Positions 6,270 through 55,306 of a DNA stretch of 64,000 bases are shown piece after piece (position 1 is the stretch's first letter; every line of letters starts with the position of its first letter). Source of the DNA: a virus. Its lineage: Duplodnaviria; Heunggongvirae; Uroviricota; Caudoviricetes. The DNA lies in the IMG/VR virus record IMGVR_UViG_3300000976_000008, positions 239,223 through 303,222 of that record, one strand, 5' to 3'. The notes under the pieces were generated by a model, which ran no database searches, was not told where the DNA came from, and saw nothing but the letters and a program-made list of their open reading frames with translations. The position numbers were made by a program, and so were the translations under genes.

Positions 6270-6871
6270 TATTGGCCTTCTATTAATTGTTGCAAAGCGT
6301 CATTGATTGTTAATATTGGGCTAGCATCTGACATATCAAGAACCCCAAATATCTGGCCAGCAGAGTTGCTATAGACACCACCTGCTATGAGGTAGTCCTT
6401 ATCCCAAGGTCCATCGCTAATTCTGATGCGACATAGACCCTTATAACCAATGCAAGAAGCGTTTTTGTATCCTAATTCTTTTAGAATATTTAAGATGGCC
6501 GATTCAACCATACTGGGATCACACTGCCGTAGTCTCAATAATTCAGTGTCCCGAGTGTTACTAGCATTGTCTGTTTGGCGTTTTAGAATCACTGCTAATG
6601 AAACTAACTCATCAATTATCGTCTCAGGATCACTTGCTGGTGACTCAAGAGGACCATACTCGAAATCCAAAAATTCATAGCTAGAAAGGTCCTTATGGGT
6701 ACTGTATTCGACGAACCCAAATTTAATCACGCCAGGAATGATAACTATTCTTGGTCTACCAATCAGGCCCAACTGAATAGAACCATTCATAGCGAACCAT
6801 ATAACACCATGACTGTCTAATTTAGAAGTCAAAACATTGTAAAGCAATCTGACTTCATCACTATTCCTCAT
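6269..6871 (-). CDS. Hypothetical, family A-like
   Basis: SPASDPETIIDEL; LRQCDPSMVESAI. Confidence 0.75.
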   Translation of the reverse strand: MRNSDEVRLLYNVLTSKLDSHGVIWFAMNGSIQLGLIGRPRIVIIPGVIKFGFVEYSTHKDLSSYEFLDFEYGPLESPASDPETIIDELVSLAVILKRQTDNASNTRDTELLRLRQCDPSMVESAILNILKELGYKNASCIGYKGLCRIRISDGPWDKDYLIAGGVYSNSAGQIFGVLDMSDASPILTINDALQQLIEGQ

Positions 6872-19103: not shown

Positions 19104-20519
19104 TTACCTCGCAAATTGAGTTTCTTGTTCGGTAGGCCCGAACGAAATTAAGTGGATTGGGATATCTAGACGACTAAGCATTTCCCGATTGCATAATCGC
19201 AACAATTCATCTGTCGAGGTATGTGCCATATCAATTGTTTTAAATTCTGGCACACATTTCTCTAAGAAAGAACCCAATTCTTGTTGGTACTTTCTTCTCC
19301 GAACATTCTCTGCTGGATCAATTGAAAGCAATTTTCCATCAGATATGAAACGGTGTGATTTTTCAAGCTGTGAAGGCTCGTTAAATTTGTATTTTTCGCA
19401 AATTTCCCATTTGCCAGTCTCATGAATATCGTCGCACCAAGTTAGAGCAATCCCATCAATATCAACTCCACAATTCTCTACTGCATAACGGAGTAGCATA
19501 AAATCTAAAGGGCCGACTCTCACCTTACCCTGATAGCGATTCTCATTCTTATGACTGCCAGGTGCTAACTTCTCCGTCATATCTTCACAATGAGTAGGCA
19601 TTGGGCCAGCACCATGACGAACACTATATGCCCTATGTACCCCAATGTTGACAATTTCACCATTATAATCAAATTGGCGAAGATAATCGGTTACAAATGT
19701 AGGCAATGTACGAATAGCACTCACATGGGGATGAAATCCAAGTGCATTATCTGTCAAAATGCCGTGTGAACTCTCAATTACAACATCGCCATCTTGGGCA
19801 AGAATCTGGCGAATATGATCGCCTTCTACCACGTTTAATTTCTCACCAACTTCTCTGAATCGTTCAATGTTGTGCTTCAAAAAACCCGGATCGTAAAGCA
19901 GGTTCAATTCGATTTGAATCAACTCCCGATCTTCATCAGTAATATCAACGACAAGTTCTTGGCCCAATTTAGAGGTTTTGGCAATGTAGTAGTCCCGAAG
20001 TCTACTCAATTTATTGCTGAGATTATGGAACTTCGAACCATCTCTCAAATCAGAGGCTCTAATTGTCAGATCTGGTTGAACATTTCGAATTCTATGAGCA
20101 ACACCAACTCCAGTCCCAACAGTGCCTCTAGGAGTAGTCCTAGTTAATTCTGTAATCCTTGAGAATATGCCATGGTAGGGGGTGGCACATAATGCTGATT
20201 CATCTACAGTCAACAAATCGAAAGCATTAGTGATACCTATATATCTCAAGCAATCAGCTTCTTTTAACATCCCTGTGGGACTAATTATCATCAGGGGTGT
20301 TATGTGTGTTTTGATTCCCTCAAGTGTTCCGCAACCCCATTGGCTGAAGCAGAACTTTGTTCGCTTATTCTGTGCACCGTGTTGACCCTGTGCACCACCG
20401 ATTTTTACAACGGTGTGGGGATGATGGCGGCAACAGAGTGCATGTATAGCACCCCCTTTGCCGCCATCGCCTGGCCCCAAATCGAAAATTGAAAAGACTC
20501 GATCAGTCATCAGATCCAA
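19104..20519 (-). CDS. Divergent adenylosuccinate synthetase-like (PurA family) ligase
   Basis: DLGPGDGGKG, GGAQGQHG, ESSHGILTD, RAYSVRHGAGPMPT, RVGPLD, ISFGPT. Confidence 0.85.
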   Translation of the reverse strand: MDLMTDRVFSIFDLGPGDGGKGGAIHALCCRHHPHTVVKIGGAQGQHGAQNKRTKFCFSQWGCGTLEGIKTHITPLMIISPTGMLKEADCLRYIGITNAFDLLTVDESALCATPYHGIFSRITELTRTTPRGTVGTGVGVAHRIRNVQPDLTIRASDLRDGSKFHNLSNKLSRLRDYYIAKTSKLGQELVVDITDEDRELIQIELNLLYDPGFLKHNIERFREVGEKLNVVEGDHIRQILAQDGDVVIESSHGILTDNALGFHPHVSAIRTLPTFVTDYLRQFDYNGEIVNIGVHRAYSVRHGAGPMPTHCEDMTEKLAPGSHKNENRYQGKVRVGPLDFMLLRYAVENCGVDIDGIALTWCDDIHETGKWEICEKYKFNEPSQLEKSHRFISDGKLLSIDPAENVRRRKYQQELGSFLEKCVPEFKTIDMAHTSTDELLRLCNREMLSRLDIPIHLISFGPTEQETQFAR

Positions 20520-27547: not shown

Positions 27548-27574
27548 TTGTTGCGAGCCAGAAAGGGTGGTTAA
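27548..27574 (-). promoter_or_regulatory. Class I promoter motif
   Basis: TTAAC-N13-TCGCAACAA upstream of MoxR. Confidence 0.75.
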
Positions 27575-42545: not shown

Positions 42546-42847
42546 ATATCTTCCTTGTCAACTAATTGATCATTGTGAAGATAATAACGCTTGCGACAAT
42601 ATTTGCAGATATCGGTATTCTTACCTTTAATCTTCTGCTTGTTCCAGTTGCCGTTGCCATCTCTTCTGACATGCCCCATATTGGTGCAAATATCGTCAAT
42701 AGTTTCCCACTTTACGGGCTTGGGTGGAAGTCCCGACCAAACATGATTTTTGACTGGAATTTCTGAGATCGCTTTCTCGATAACAGTGACGATCCCATCT
42801 ATACATTCGTCATCATCAATATCGAATATTAGCGTTACCTGTCGCAT
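42542..42847 (-). CDS. Hypothetical protein
   Basis: 101 aa ORF. Confidence 0.7.
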   Translation of the reverse strand: MRQVTLIFDIDDDECIDGIVTVIEKAISEIPVKNHVWSGLPPKPVKWETIDDICTNMGHVRRDGNGNWNKQKIKGKNTDICKYCRKRYYLHNDQLVDKEDI

Positions 42848-43248
42848 TGATGTAAACCGTTCTCATGGAAGTATTTGTTTCTCTTGCGAAACAAAATTTT
42901 GCCACCTTTGGATCTTTTAGCCCAAAAGCCCCATTTTCTGCGTTCAGGACCTGTGATCATCAGAGTCCAGCAGCCACCTTCATTTACCTTTACGGTATGT
43001 TTGTGTTCTGCTTTAAAGCTCTTAATTGATCCTCTTTTTAATACGGTGTCACCTTCTGGGCTTTGATCAGTATATCCGCCTTTGAGGACGATTGTTGTAT
43101 AATCCCAGGGATGATCGTGCGGTGCCCTATCGTCATCGCTGGCTAACCAGTGATGTAGGCGTAGTGAGAATCATCCGAATTCTAGACACCATCGACGAAG
43201 GTAAACACCGTCGACGCATTTAAGTTCTTGACCCCAGATTATCTTCAT
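42835..43248 (-). CDS. Phage cupin-like protein with one in-frame UGA (codon 26, 43171-43173): readthrough gene or recent pseudogene
   Basis: MKIIWG...YLRRWCLEFG*FSLRLHHWLASDDDRAPHDHPW...LKGGY...HKHTV...WTLMITGPERRKWGFW; ATGA-coupled start. Confidence 0.8.
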
Positions 43249-44490: not shown

Positions 44491-44658
44491 TCCGCGACCT
44501 GGGACTCGAACCGCAGGATCTCCCCCATGTTATCACTCCTAGCTCTGACGTTGCAATCATCAGAATTCGGTGTGGCAAATTGGATCGTAAAGCCTAACGT
44601 ACGCTGCTTCACGTTCCTCTCCGCTGGGCGGTGCTTTAACCAACTAAGCTAGTCGCGG
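44491..44658 (-). ncRNA. tRNA-like RNA with about 97-nt insertion in the anticodon arm
   Basis: Acceptor CCGCGAC/GTCGCGG-A, D arm TAGCTTAGTTGGTTAAAGC, T loop GGTTCGAGTCC. Confidence 0.75.
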
Positions 44659-44898: not shown

Positions 44899-45324
44899 TT
44901 AATTCGAGTAAAACTCCTCCAATTCCAGGATGATCGCATTGAGATTATCCGGGATATCGACTTCTTGCACATTCTGGATGCAATCTGCTGGCCGACGACA
45001 GATCTGGTATTGTTTAAGAACGTGCAAGTAAAGATTCTTGTAACGAGATTCTTTACAATTGATTCTCCGGAATCCGAGACCATAGAACTCCTTCTTGTCT
45101 AGCTTATGCATGCCAGATTCGATGAAGTTCTTCGGTGCCTTGGGTTCATTACCAGAGCGGTTCTGAGGCTGCTTGCGAACCCACCGCAAGTACGCCTTAC
45201 ATTCGACATAGGCTCGGAGAAGAAGCTTGTGAGCCTTCTTCAACTTGAGATATGTCTCATAATCGCATGGGTGGTATCCAAAACGGCCTTCAGTGATAGT
45301 ATTAGTAGTTGTTGCAGTCTTCAT
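44899..45324 (-). CDS. Hypothetical protein downstream of Pth2-like gene and leader ORF
   Basis: GGAG RBS; FGYHPCDYETYLKLK. Confidence 0.85.
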   Translation of the reverse strand: MKTATTTNTITEGRFGYHPCDYETYLKLKKAHKLLLRAYVECKAYLRWVRKQPQNRSGNEPKAPKNFIESGMHKLDKKEFYGLGFRRINCKESRYKNLYLHVLKQYQICRRPADCIQNVQEVDIPDNLNAIILELEEFYSN

Positions 45325-45395: not shown

Positions 45396-45425
45396 CTAAG
45401 GCGGGTCTCTACAAGGTCATAGCAT
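45396..45425 (-). other. Putative leader mini-ORF ML*PCRDPP* (UGA at codon 3)
   Basis: AGGA-N8-ATG CTA TGA CCT TGT AGA GAC CCG CCT TAG. Confidence 0.45.
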
Positions 45426-45429
45426 AATA

Positions 45430-45792
45430 CTATCCTTTCACCAATTGGAGCCTACGGAATAGGCGTCGATCGTCGCCTTTAATGGGTGCGGTTGCGAGTG
45501 CTGTCAATTCATTATCGCGGTCTGGTTCGTAGAATTTCTCGAACCGAATACCGGATGATTGCAGTTTCTCAGCCTGGGCATGAAGTGCGTCTTCATGCTT
45601 GACATGGCACAACACCAAATGAGGGTGTGGCGTGTCTGGAGCGATTCCGCCGCGTCTAGAAATCTCGATTGCGGCGTGGATTCCCTGCACAGCTTGTTGT
45701 GCGGGAGTTAGATCTTTTCGGGTGATCACGTATACGTGTCCACCGTACTCTTCATCAACTGGAAGTCACAGGTCTTTAGTTTGTGTCAGCAT
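45430..45792 (-). CDS. Pth2-like peptidyl-tRNA hydrolase with in-frame UGA at codon 9 (45766-45768)
   Basis: MLTQTKDL*LPVDEEYGGHVYVITRKDLTPAQQAVQGIHAA...FYEPDRDNELTALA; AAGGA RBS before ATG 45792. Confidence 0.8.
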
Positions 45793-46779: not shown

Positions 46780-47292
46780 TCATTTTGGCCAACTATCCAT
46801 AAATTCGTCAGCCTTACACCATCCCTGTATAGGGTAGGATTTGATTCCGTCCTTTGTATCTTCAATTCGGATCATCTTTTGACCCACACCGAATTCGATT
46901 ATTGATCCTCGACGCCTCATCCCATGGATCATTGTGCAAGCACTACCGAAAGCAGTCATAATCGGTGTCTCAAATGGTAATTTGTTTACGACACCTATAG
47001 GGATGGTTCTTTCTAATTCGGAGAAACTTTCGAAATCATGCATTATCTGGCTGATTTCTAGTTTATCCTCTACTCGAATCATAGTCGCTCTGGCTTGCTC
47101 GTAATCTTGACGGAGTGGGTTACACTTCCACCCATTCCACCCCCAAGCCATCATGCTGCCAGTGCAACCATCTGTTTTACATTTTCGTTGGTCTTCGTAT
47201 GGCTCATCAGTATGAAGTGCCTCAAAACCACAACCCCAGCATTTCAAGACGTCTTTCTTAAAATGCTCGACTTCTCTTGAATCAAATGCCAT
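46780..47292 (-). CDS. Hypothetical Zn-ribbon protein
   Basis: CWGC...CKTDGC; TAATG overlap. Confidence 0.75.
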   Translation of the reverse strand: MAFDSREVEHFKKDVLKCWGCGFEALHTDEPYEDQRKCKTDGCTGSMMAWGWNGWKCNPLRQDYEQARATMIRVEDKLEISQIMHDFESFSELERTIPIGVVNKLPFETPIMTAFGSACTMIHGMRRRGSIIEFGVGQKMIRIEDTKDGIKSYPIQGWCKADEFMDSWPK

Positions 47293-47711
47293 TAGTTCTC
47301 GCGTGTGATTGCTGCTGGGTCGACTTGGAGCTTGTCTATGTAGGTTTGGAATTGTGCTGCGGATACTGATCGCAGTTGTTGAAGTTCCCAAGTCTTGGAA
47401 TCTGGATTGGTTGGTTTGAATTGCCCACTCCACATAGTGCAGGAGACTGTTGCCTTCTTACCAATCTCCATGTTGATTTCAACGGCTTTGACAGTTGAGA
47501 TCCATTCGCCTTTTTCGTTGAGGACGAGAAGTTGCCCTGGTTTTGCGTCGCACACGATCATGAAGACTGATTTGCCTGTTGATATGGTGGACTTCTGAGT
47601 TGATGTTGGAGTCTTTGTCGCTGTCTTCTCTTGTGCGGCTACAGTGGTGAATTGTGAAAGAAGAACTGATGCGAGAATGACTGCGGAACAAACGACTGCT
47701 AGCTTCTTCAT
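47292..47711 (-). CDS. Secreted hypothetical protein
   Basis: Signal peptide MKKLAVVCSAVILASVLLSQFTTVAAQ; AGGAG RBS. Confidence 0.8.
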   Translation of the reverse strand: MKKLAVVCSAVILASVLLSQFTTVAAQEKTATKTPTSTQKSTISTGKSVFMIVCDAKPGQLLVLNEKGEWISTVKAVEINMEIGKKATVSCTMWSGQFKPTNPDSKTWELQQLRSVSAAQFQTYIDKLQVDPAAITREN

Positions 47712-48217
47712 GAGAGGCTCCTGGGATAGAATTGGTTCAGAGATCAAATACGTGAAAGGCTCGCAGCAAATTATCACTGCGAGCCTTTCTAGCATTATTG
47801 GGCGGGGATCATGGAGCCTTCATGTTGATTATCTTTGGCTCTTACCCCTATAACATTCTCTTTTATTTTCTTTTTATTTGAAACTTTTCTTTTCTTGGTC
47901 TCTTTGACTTGCTCTTGGTCTCTTTGACTTCTCTCAGCGTCTCTGTCTCTCTAAGATACTTTCCCAAACTTCTTTCTGCGAGATGTCGGCCATCCAGAAG
48001 TTTGAGAGGCGGGGTCATAGGGCACTCTGGCCATTCAGCCGCTTAGTGTGCCCTCACCCTTTTATACCTTCACGGGTGGGTGGTGCTCTCGTTCTCATTT
48101 AGTAAGCCTCGCAATTCATTAATGCCTAAGTTCTAATGAGTCATCAGCCCGGCGATCACAGTATCACCCCGAACCTCGTCGCCGCCGTAGCGGACTTCCA
48201 CACTTCGAATACATGAG

Positions 48218-48292
48218 AGGGGCCAGGGGGATTCGAACCCCCGACGAACGCTGGTTTGAAATCAGCCGCTCTGACCACTGAGCTATGGCCCC
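48218..48292 (-). tRNA. tRNA with UCA anticodon (opal suppressor), copy 1
   Basis: GGGGCCA TA GCTC AGTGGTCA GAGC G GCTGA TT-TCA-AA CCAGC GTTCGTC GGGGG TTCGAAT CCCCC TGGCCCC T. Confidence 0.9.
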
Positions 48293-48303
48293 TTGATACC
48301 AAT

Positions 48304-48330
48304 TTGTTGCGAAAAGAGAAACCCCGTTAA
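48304..48330 (-). promoter_or_regulatory. Class I promoter motif driving tRNA(UCA) copy 1
   Basis: TTAAC-N13-TCGCAACAA, 11 nt before tRNA 5' end. Confidence 0.75.
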
Positions 48331-48351
48331 TTTATATTTTACTACATTAAG

Positions 48352-48428
48352 CAGGGCCAGGGGGATTCGAACCCCCGCAAGACAGGAATTTGAAATTCCC
48401 CGCTCTAGCCAGACTGAGCTATGGCCCC
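48352..48428 (-). tRNA. tRNA with UCA anticodon (opal suppressor, Trp-like G73), copy 2
   Basis: GGGGCCA TA GCTC AGTCTGGCTA GAGC G GGGAA TT-TCA-AA TTCCT GTCTTGC GGGGG TTCGAAT CCCCC TGGCCCT G. Confidence 0.9.
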
Positions 48429-53391: not shown

Positions 53392-53418
53392 TTGTTGCGA
53401 ACAGAAATGACCCGTTAA
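53392..53418 (-). promoter_or_regulatory. Class I promoter motif
   Basis: TTAAC-N13-TCGCAACAA. Confidence 0.75.
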
Positions 53419-54589: not shown

Positions 54590-55015
54590 ATGCAAAAAGC
54601 AATATGTAAAAAACATGGAATTTGCGATCATAAATCTCAAGCTAATGGATTTGATCCTAAAGGAAAACGAAGAAAGAATCGTTTACGTTGTGTTCAATGC
54701 TTGCGAGAGAGGCAAAAGAAAGTTTATAGAAAAAAGAAGGAATTTCTTGTAGAGAAACTTGGCGGGAAATGTGCATTATGTGGTTATTTGAAGTGTAATG
54801 GATCATTAGATTTCCATCACATAGATAGAACTACTAAATTTAAAAACATATCACAAATGCTATTAAGAGACAGCTATGAAAAATGTTTGTTAGAAGCAAA
54901 CAAATGCGTCTTATTATGTAGAAATTGTCATGGTGAATTCGAATCTGGACATAACGAAACAGTTAATCAACTAAACGAATTTTTAATCAAGTCCGGGGAG
55001 AATCGAACTCCCTAA
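54590..55015 (+). CDS. HNH endonuclease
   Basis: LGGKCALCGY...LDFHH...EANKCVLLCRNCHGE. Confidence 0.9.
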   Translation: MQKAICKKHGICDHKSQANGFDPKGKRRKNRLRCVQCLRERQKKVYRKKKEFLVEKLGGKCALCGYLKCNGSLDFHHIDRTTKFKNISQMLLRDSYEKCLLEANKCVLLCRNCHGEFESGHNETVNQLNEFLIKSGENRTP

Positions 55016-55061
55016 GCACTAACTTTGGAGGTTAGCCGTCGTACCCACCGACTGCGGACGT
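54988..55061 (-). tRNA. tRNA-Trp(CCA), non-canonical, copy 1
   Basis: CTAAC CT-CCA-AA GTTAG; T arm GGGAG TTCGATT CTCCC; A1-U72, G73. Confidence 0.8.
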
Positions 55062-55070
55062 ATGAAAAAT

Positions 55071-55144
55071 CAAGTCCGGAGAGAATCGAACTCTCTAAGC
55101 ACTAACTTTGGAGATTAGCCGTCGTACCCACCGACTGCGGACGT
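55071..55144 (-). tRNA. tRNA-Trp(CCA), non-canonical, copy 2
   Basis: Tandem duplicate with compensatory T-stem change GAGAG/CTCTC. Confidence 0.8.
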
Positions 55145-55306
55145 ATGGAACATGGAAGTACCGGTCCACGGAGAATGAGGGTTATGACCTAAGAATCAAC
55201 ACACCATGGACCTGCACAATTAGCGGCAAGGCCAATAATAAAAAGTGTGTTGTGAAATAGAAGTGGTCATTGTAAGGTATGTTTGAACGAAAAGGCTATT
55301 TTTCAT

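Follow-up and report, generated by a model that had tools for sequence, protein, structure and literature searches.

What would a phage that commonly ends its genes with UGA do with tRNAs predicted to read UGA as an amino acid? The question is raised by a 64,000-nucleotide (nt) stretch of DNA, here called the window, which comprises bases 239,223-303,222 of a single 408,349-bp virus record (IMG/VR record IMGVR_UViG_3300000976_000008) and contains two diverged tRNA genes, copy 1 and copy 2, that share the anticodon UCA. Comparison of these genes with each other and with related loci argues that both tRNAs probably function as opal suppressors, with the role of inducing a small regulon gated by UGA and not of recoding the whole genome. 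The candidate targets, a gene for a protein of the Pth2 fold, a short leader and a cupin-like gene, lie 3-5 kb downstream of the tRNAs on the same strand.

Structures of the two UCA tRNAs

The initial annotation had reported two tRNA genes with a UCA anticodon, and both ARAGORN and the Rfam model RF00005, whose gathering threshold is 29 bits, call them:

48292..48218, minus strand: tRNA(UCA) copy 1 (ARAGORN; Rfam RF00005 63.4 bits, E 2e-11)
48428..48352, minus strand: tRNA(UCA) copy 2 (ARAGORN; Rfam RF00005 58.2 bits, E 5e-10)

Each copy has the class I elongator cloverleaf of RF00005, with a 7-bp acceptor stem, a 4-bp D stem, a 5-bp anticodon stem, a 7-nt anticodon loop and a 5-bp T stem with a GTTCGAAT loop. 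The anticodon sits within the loop UUUCAAA (U32-U33-U34-C35-A36-A37-A38), giving both copies the hallmarks of an opal suppressor: UCA at positions 34-36, U33 and a purine at 37. The A36-A37-A38 run is the context of tRNAs reading U-initial codons. The minimum-energy fold of copy 1 is the cloverleaf, and CCA is encoded by neither gene. ARAGORN labels the genes as selenocysteine tRNAs (tRNA-Sec), a reading that draws on the UCA anticodon only and is almost certainly wrong. In bacteria, tRNA-Sec combines an 8+5 arrangement with a 6-bp D stem and a long extra arm; the 7-bp acceptor and 5-bp T stem, 4-bp D stem and 7-nt variable region found here contradict the label, and we rejected it.

A region-by-region comparison of the copies shows them to be identical across the 7-nt acceptor 5' strand, positions 8-9, both D-stem strands, position 26, the anticodon loop and all 17 nt of the T arm. 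Eight of the ten anticodon-stem bases differ, three of five on the 5' strand and all five on the 3' strand, with pairing kept: GCUGA/CCAGC in copy 1 forms 4 bp plus an A31.C39 mismatch, and GGGAA/UUCCU in copy 2 forms 5 bp. The division into a shared acceptor 5' strand, D stem, T arm and loop and diverged anticodon stems, as first described, is thus borne out. The variable regions had been singled out as unusual; they span 7 nt in both copies (G-N5-C), where 4-5 nt is usual, and differ at 4/7 bases. The D loops have 8 and 10 nt, the 10-nt loop belonging to copy 2. The ends of the molecules are also as described, G1-C72 with U73 in copy 1 and G1.U72 with G73 in copy 2.

A jumbo phage that uses the standard code

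The 408,349-bp record is 100% complete by CheckV, has a GC content of 43% and is identified as a jumbo myophage by PHROG matches to a tail sheath, a portal, a large terminase, a family-B DNA polymerase and a ribonucleotide reductase. Its terminase is at most 28% identical to that of any deposited phage and 62-82% identical to those of a set of uncultured IMG/VR contigs, all of which are fragments and none of which carries a UCA tRNA. A megablast search of the 47-50 kb region against phage records gave zero matches, and a distant blastn search of the locus returned generic tRNA matches only. Of the 23 tRNA genes that ARAGORN calls genome-wide, eight lie in the window.

Open reading frames (ORFs) of at least 100 amino acids (aa) in translation table 11 cover 88% of the genome (88-92% coverage). 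In a crude, greedily chosen set of non-overlapping ORFs from the whole genome, TGA ends more ORFs than any other stop (251 of 621, ~40%), and its lead holds in essentially every 40-kb block. In-frame extensions past TGA stops have a median length of 9 codons, not longer than those past TAA or TAG, and TGA-ending phage genes come without extra back-up stops. When we searched for ORFs whose existence depends on reading one stop type as sense, only one case, for TGA, was convincing. A genome search found no encoded release factor and no Trp- or Tyr-tRNA synthetase, nor was a CCA-adding enzyme of the PF01743 family found in the phage genome. The phage uses the standard code; because TGA is the commonest stop, the code is neither code 4 nor code 25, and block-wise recoding is likewise excluded.

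These data bear directly on the idea that the whole phage, or a block of it, follows an alternative code (code 4, with UGA as Trp, or code 25, with UGA as Gly) and that the tRNAs are general decoding machinery. We counted in its favour the U73 of copy 1, which we take to resemble the discriminator of tRNA-Gly(UCA) in code-25 bacteria. Suppressor tRNAs are, moreover, often found in recoded phages (10.1101/2021.08.26.457843). However, the table 11 coverage, the block-by-block lead of TGA, the ordinary frequency of extensions past TGA, the lone ORF that needs TGA as sense and the lack of an encoded release factor make this explanation very improbable. With 88-92% coverage in table 11 and TGA ending 40% of its ORFs, the phage does not belong to the stop-recoded (code 4) phages.

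Early in-frame stops downstream of the tRNAs

The genes considered in this section are:

47292..47795, minus strand: gene for a 167-aa protein with a signal-peptide-like N-terminus, a conserved neighbour between the tRNA(s) and the Pth2-like gene
45792..45430, minus strand: gene for a putative Pth2-fold hydrolase, with ATG at 45792, TGA as codon 9 (45768..45766) and its stop at 45432..45430
45425..45396, minus strand: leader ORF M-L-UGA-P-C-R-D-P-P-stop, with UGA at 45419..45417, directly after the Pth2-like gene
45324..44899, minus strand: gene for a 141-aa protein, a conserved partner downstream of the Pth2-like gene
43248..42835, minus strand: cupin-like gene (phrog_4786), with TGA as codon 26 (43173..43171) inside the conserved domain

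The Pth2-like gene begins with a Shine-Dalgarno (SD) sequence, ATG, seven codons and TGA (MLTQTKDL-TGA). Its first standard-code start is GTG 45729, 13 codons past the TGA, and between the two sits the first strand, YGGHVYV, which is conserved protein sequence in the homologues P0103, P0105, P0110 and P0112. An AlphaFold model of the protein (predicted local distance difference test, pLDDT, 91) matches the archaeal and human Pth2 structures MJ0051, AF2095, Bit1, PH1539 and S. solfataricus Pth2 in Foldseek with a probability of 1.0 and template modelling (TM) scores of 0.6-0.7. The modelled protein thus has the Pth2 alpha/beta fold. The Pfam sequence model PF01981 gives no match for the window protein at E <=0.01, and one distant homologue, P0125, carries it; because of the missing Pfam match we name the protein Pth2-fold or Pth2-like and not Pth2, and its hydrolase activity is putative.

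The three closest homologues of the Pth2-like protein looked truncated, and the contig DNA was therefore examined for L193 and L194/L195, though not for P0104. In L193 (72% identity) the gene reads MKNLNDL-TGA-PSDNHGGHIYV; the contig is 2.2 kb long and has no tRNA on it. In L194/L195 (63% identity) it reads MKDL-TGA-AHYCYIVV, with a tRNA(UCA) 2 kb upstream on the same strand, and in L194 the first canonical start past the TGA would remove the whole first strand. The order of the 167-aa protein gene, the Pth2-like gene, the leader and the 141-aa protein gene is common to the window, L193 and L194, and tRNA(UCA) gene(s) precede this four-gene block in the window and L194. The 167-aa neighbour is syntenic with L193 and L194 at 39-45% identity (tblastn).

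Independently, metagenomes were scanned for a UCA tRNA pattern, which yielded three contigs: L076 and L077, each with a tandem pair of unrelated UCA tRNAs, and L078, with a single one. Directly downstream of the UCA tRNA(s), L077 and L078 have a Pth2-like gene that begins ML-TGA and MGG-TGA, respectively, and a 141-aa homologue lies downstream of the tRNA pair in L076. A tRNA(UCA) thus lies alongside the early-TGA homologues L193, L194/L195, L077 and L078 wherever the contig reaches. Each tandem pair (L076 528-677, minus strand; L077 808-957, plus strand) combines one U73 and one A73 tRNA. L076 looks standard-code and has cell-like genes (a nucleotide-sugar epimerase, a transposase), a gene content from which the module may also reside in bacterial chromosomes or other mobile elements.

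An IMG/VR profile search with the Pth2-like alignment extended the comparison to 22 loci. In 15 of 17 distinct IMG/VR loci, 1-12 codons follow the ATG before an in-frame stop interrupts the gene immediately ahead of the conserved strand. This early stop is TGA in the window, L193, L194, L077, L078, L197 and L207, and TAG in L196, L198-L203, L205, L206, L208, L209, L212, L217 and the cultured Serratia phage BF and Acinetobacter phage ME3. The neighbouring tRNAs follow the same division. A nearby tRNA(CUA) accompanies TAG in L196, L198 (two tRNAs), L201, L202, L203, L205, L212 and L217, and among the loci of the profile search a tRNA(UCA) accompanies TGA in L197 and L207. In phage ME3 (L220, KU935715.1) the gene begins MT-TAG and a tRNA(CUA) lies 450 nt upstream; in phage BF (L219, KY630187.1, about 286080-286409) it begins MTH-TAG and is unannotated in the record. 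Across independent loci, IMG/VR and cultured phages taken together, six pair TGA with UCA, nine pair TAG with CUA and none is mixed (Fisher p = 2e-4). XacN1 and Stenotrophomonas phage CM1 have the Pth2-like domain fused to a larger N-terminus, with no early stop.

Eleven suppressor tRNAs of such modules align to one cloverleaf, with compensatory changes at 15 of 21 pairs. The tRNA(UCA) of L194 (5255-5327) and the tRNA(CUA) of L205 (4777-4848) are alike in U73, in their acceptor stem (GGGCGUG/CACGCCC) and in much of the body. This likeness suggests that anticodon mutation can turn an amber module into an opal one or the reverse, the gate codon changing along with it. The initial annotation had argued for selection on UGA decoding as opposed to a single decayed copy. 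This argument is supported and has gained a broader basis: compensatory changes in the anticodon stems, UGA-bearing candidate target genes downstream and, across other phages, an early stop in the Pth2-like gene that matches the suppressor anticodon.

The same observations weigh on a second explanation, in which the tRNAs are tolerated leftovers or selfish passengers of a tRNA/HNH-endonuclease region and the TGAs are nonsense mutations or mark short upstream ORFs followed by internal starts. An HNH endonuclease gene does adjoin copy 2, in divergent orientation; a GTG start is possible in the Pth2-like gene; and no orthologues of these exact tRNAs were found. Yet at least 15 independent homologues retain an early stop in the same position, of a type that goes with the neighbouring anticodon, the first canonical start past the TGA of L194 deletes the whole first strand, and both tRNAs keep their pairing through different anticodon-stem sequences. 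We consider passengers and chance stops quite unlikely.

The leader shows a second early UGA, at codon 3, followed by a short proline-rich end. Related leaders read ML-UGA-RDRAPP-stop in L193, ML-UGA-SKRAPP-stop in L194, ML-UGA-RPRPPPFS-stop in L197 and MT-UGA-VARGPP-stop in L078. RAPP and RGPP are established ribosome-arrest motifs (PMC7897499, PMC10951233, PMC12992588). In all four loci that were folded, the 3' end of the leader pairs with the SD region of the 141-aa gene (anti-SD helix), and in three of the four, the window included, the helix uses the leader stop codon and the bases that follow it. Between L193 and L194 the helix has undergone a compensatory change (CCAGG:CCUGG versus CCAAG:CUUGG). 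The window thus contains the full module: a Pth2-like gene with an early stop, a matching tRNA and a leader with an early stop and an anti-SD helix. At about 4280-4330 of L196, the TAG-gated Pth2-like ORF itself ends in EEARAPP-stop, so that the motif is fused and there is no separate leader.

Homologues of the 141-aa protein occur downstream of the Pth2-like gene in L193, L194, L196-L199, L201-L203, L206 and L212, and about 55 homologues are solid (E <=1e-12). The protein belongs to no Pfam or PHROG family, and neither Foldseek nor VIA-align (best Z 4.5) finds a PDB fold that matches its confident model (pLDDT 94). It may represent a new fold with a link to translation control.

The third candidate target is the cupin-like gene. 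With TGA read as sense, its product is 137 aa long, the match to phrog_4786 (E 7e-36) covers residues 13-124, the TGA position included, and 98 database homologues align at ~99% coverage. No start codon occurs for 71 codons past the TGA. Among 49 aligned homologues, codon 26 aligns with W in 12, F in 9, L in 9, I in 7, G in 3 and C in none, and the closest homologues have W. A cupin homologue at 5968-6357 of L222 (64% identity) reads MKN-TAG-IIWGQ, with TAG as codon 4 before the conserved N-terminus; no tRNA lies within this 10.8-kb locus. This single case points, tentatively, to stop gating of the cupin family in relatives as well.

Charging, expression and a proposed switch

Which amino acids would the two tRNAs insert? 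The acceptor stem is common to 114 bacterial tRNAs, mostly Met/Ile2(CAU) and none of them Trp, Gly or Cys; over its full length, copy 1 most resembles a Phycisphaeraceae tRNA-Lys(UUU). Neither the 114 sharers nor this look-alike assigns an isotype by ancestry. The other 21 tRNAs of the phage, tRNA-Trp(CCA) genes included, are not close to either UCA copy. Tryptophanyl-tRNA synthetase (TrpRS) recognizes G73, a weak 1-72 pair and the anticodon C34-C35-A36; copy 2 has G73, G1.U72, C35 and A36, but U34. The tRNA-Gly(UCA) of code-25 bacteria has U73, G1-C72, C2-G71 and G3-C70, and tRNA-Cys has U73 with a GCA anticodon; copy 1 has U73, G1-C72, G3-C70, C35 and A36, but G2-C71 and U34. By established identity rules, copy 2 fits TrpRS best and copy 1 fits the Cys (CysRS) or Gly (GlyRS) enzyme in part. 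Copy 2 is most plausibly charged with Trp, Cys and Gly are the candidates for copy 1, and it is plausible, as the initial annotation proposed, that the two copies insert different amino acids. Discriminators among the suppressors of other modules are mixed (U, G and A, with U73 in L076-A, L194 and L205). At two of the three gates any amino acid would serve because those codons are unconserved positions, and the cupin column favours Trp or another hydrophobic residue. Suppressor pairs for one stop occur elsewhere, in L076/L077, L198 and XacN1, and we speculate that doubling is selected, for example for charging in different hosts or for the use of two promoters.

ARAGORN also reports two tandem, near-identical tRNA-Trp(CCA)-like genes (54987-55062 and 55070-55145, minus strand). 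Both combine A1-U72 and G73 with a C2.U71 mismatch and a 6-bp anticodon stem; they lie under the Rfam gathering score and have a folding energy no better than that of shuffled sequence. Together with the UCA pair, these genes provide the phage with both CCA and UCA readers of the UGR box.

Two elements lie upstream of the tRNAs:

48305..48330, minus strand: copy of the motif TTAAC-N15-YGCAACA, 13 nt upstream of copy 1, a candidate phage promoter
48529..48556, minus strand: sigma-70-like TTGACA-16 nt-TAAATT, ~100 nt upstream of copy 2, weakly supported

The first motif occurs 11 times in the window against ~0.5 (0.49) expected, mostly on the coding strand and in intergenic DNA; sites include 226-251, 6288-6313, 27549-27574 and 53393-53418. 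It is probably a phage-specific promoter or regulatory element, and probably also what had been called a class I promoter belonging to copy 1. Of that earlier claim the repeated motif stands, and its promoter role is that of a candidate. The scan for sigma-70 promoters gave 1 site where 2.4 are expected by chance and thus does not rise above chance. The 400 nt downstream of copy 1 contain no structured RNA or ribozyme that matches Rfam at E <=1, and the folding z is -1.2.

We propose that the host CCA-adding enzyme and aminoacyl-tRNA synthetases would mature and charge the tRNAs, which would then compete with release factor 2 (RF2) at a few deliberately placed UGA codons. UGA codon 9 would gate synthesis of the Pth2-fold hydrolase, and UGA codon 26 that of the cupin-like protein. 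Termination at codon 3 of the leader would leave the anti-SD helix closed. Upon readthrough of the 9-codon leader, the ribosome would reach R-D-P-P-stop and be expected to stall on the 5' arm of the helix; the stalled ribosome would melt the helix and free the ribosome-binding site of the 141-aa gene. With ~40% of ORFs ending in TGA, the Pth2-like enzyme may in turn feed back on the suppressor and hold readthrough low. In a more elaborate version, possible but doubtful, the locus would be a "code dimmer": the paralogues would be charged by different synthetases (e.g. Trp on G73, Cys or Gly on U73) and expressed from different promoters, and the UGA-gated hydrolase would strip the suppressor ester and thereby hold genome-wide UGA readthrough at a low, tolerable set point.

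A further explanation gives the tRNAs a global role, namely low-level readthrough of host or phage UGA stops (takeover or anti-defence) or extra decoding of UGG (Trp) by U34 wobble, with the gated genes as a monitor or brake. XacN1 (PMC5852040) and Atu_ph07 (PMC6102473) are standard-code jumbo phages with suppressors that have no known targets, a suppressor-gated hydrolase looks like a feedback device, and the two unusual tRNA-Trp(CCA) genes are on the phage as well. A host target is conjecture only, and the purpose reaches beyond what the DNA can tell; the idea does not conflict with the gating data. We regard a global role as unlikely.

Several observations weigh against the proposal that the tRNAs are working suppressors of a small regulon. 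Copy 1 has the A31.C39 mismatch in its anticodon stem, and the minimum-energy fold of copy 2 is a competing structure, although the covariance model still aligns the cloverleaf. Exact-pattern scans of IMG/VR revealed no orthologues of either tRNA, so that conservation of these particular genes is beyond measurement. Translation of the Pth2-like gene might conceivably begin at GTG 45729, which is preceded by GGTGGA, and the TGA of the cupin-like gene could be a tolerated TGG-to-TGA mutation. The leader of the window has RDPP and not the proven RAPP or RGPP, so that stalling at this motif is an expectation drawn from its relatives' motifs. Because TGA is the commonest stop and is not followed by extra back-up stops, an efficient suppressor should be costly. 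Finally, we infer transcription, processing, CCA addition, charging and suppression from the DNA.

Other features of the window touch the switch less directly. The protein encoded at 46780-47433, a neighbour of the module, has no close relative in IMG/VR. Among the large unannotated genes, 19104-20519 (minus strand) encodes a PurA/PurZ-like adenylosuccinate-synthetase homologue (phrog_1211, E 1e-37). With introns allowed, ARAGORN also places a tRNA-Val(AAC) at 44491-44658 (minus strand), its anticodon loop interrupted by an insert of 93 nt. Acceptor- and T-arm-like ends are visible by eye, and there is no Rfam match at E <=1; the call may be an intron-bearing or broken tRNA, or false.

The locus shares traits with several known systems. 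Recoded phages (code 15 and code 4; crAss-like, Lak, Agate and Jade phages) likewise have a stop-reading phage tRNA that the host presumably charges, a regulatory use of their in-frame stops has been proposed, and TGA suppressors also occur in some of their standard-code relatives, which have very few TGA stops (10.1101/2021.08.26.457843). Recoded lineages are depleted of TGA or TAG as a stop (e.g. 2.7% of genes) and have in-frame stops over many late genes, whereas here TGA makes up 40% of the stops, only some three genes have an in-frame UGA, each near the 5' end, and no release factor or synthetase comes from the phage itself. Closer likenesses are XacN1 (two CUA; PMC5852040) and Atu_ph07 (one UCA; PMC6102473), which, like the phage studied here, are jumbo myophages with the standard code, an abundant suppressed stop and one or two suppressors among many tRNA genes. 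The authors of the XacN1 study were unable to identify suppressor targets (PMC5852040), and those of the Atu_ph07 study, in which 267 TGA stops face one UCA suppressor, say only that there are several potential targets (PMC6102473). Unlike in these two reports, candidate targets are identified here, and they vary together with the tRNA across phages.

Autoregulation of prfB, which encodes RF2, relies on an early in-frame UGA that is escaped by a +1 frameshift and senses RF2. The Pth2-like gene resembles prfB in having an early in-frame UGA in a translation-factor-like gene, whose synthesis would report UGA termination; it differs in that the stop would be passed in frame by a dedicated tRNA and in that the gene encodes a Pth2-fold hydrolase. 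The leaders of ApdA, ApdP and ApcA (PMC7897499, PMC10951233, PMC12992588) have R-(A/G)-P-P before the stop and a downstream ribosome-binding site in a helix, as here. Those leaders are long and monitor protein secretion, whereas the leaders described here have 9-11 codons and an arrest motif that is reached only past UGA codon 3, RDPP in the window copy. A full-text literature search brought up no publication that connects a suppressor tRNA with a Pth2-like gene gated by a stop.

For the suppressor tRNAs of standard-code jumbo phages, these results provide concrete, conserved targets and a readable mechanism, making the question of their function directly testable. To the amber versions of the module the locus adds an opal one with two diverged paralogues, a suppressed stop that is the commonest of the phage and a candidate third target, the cupin-like gene. 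Serratia phage BF and Acinetobacter phage ME3, both of which are in culture and have the amber form of the gated gene, offer laboratory systems for the switch. The findings also carry a warning for annotation, as stop-gated genes are missed or truncated, for example in phage BF, where the gene is unannotated. The diverged suppressor pair raises the possibility that one stop codon is read as two amino acids. If the proposed mechanism is true, the module would represent a new class of translational switch with a tRNA as the inducer, and it would bear on how stop-codon recoding starts in phages.

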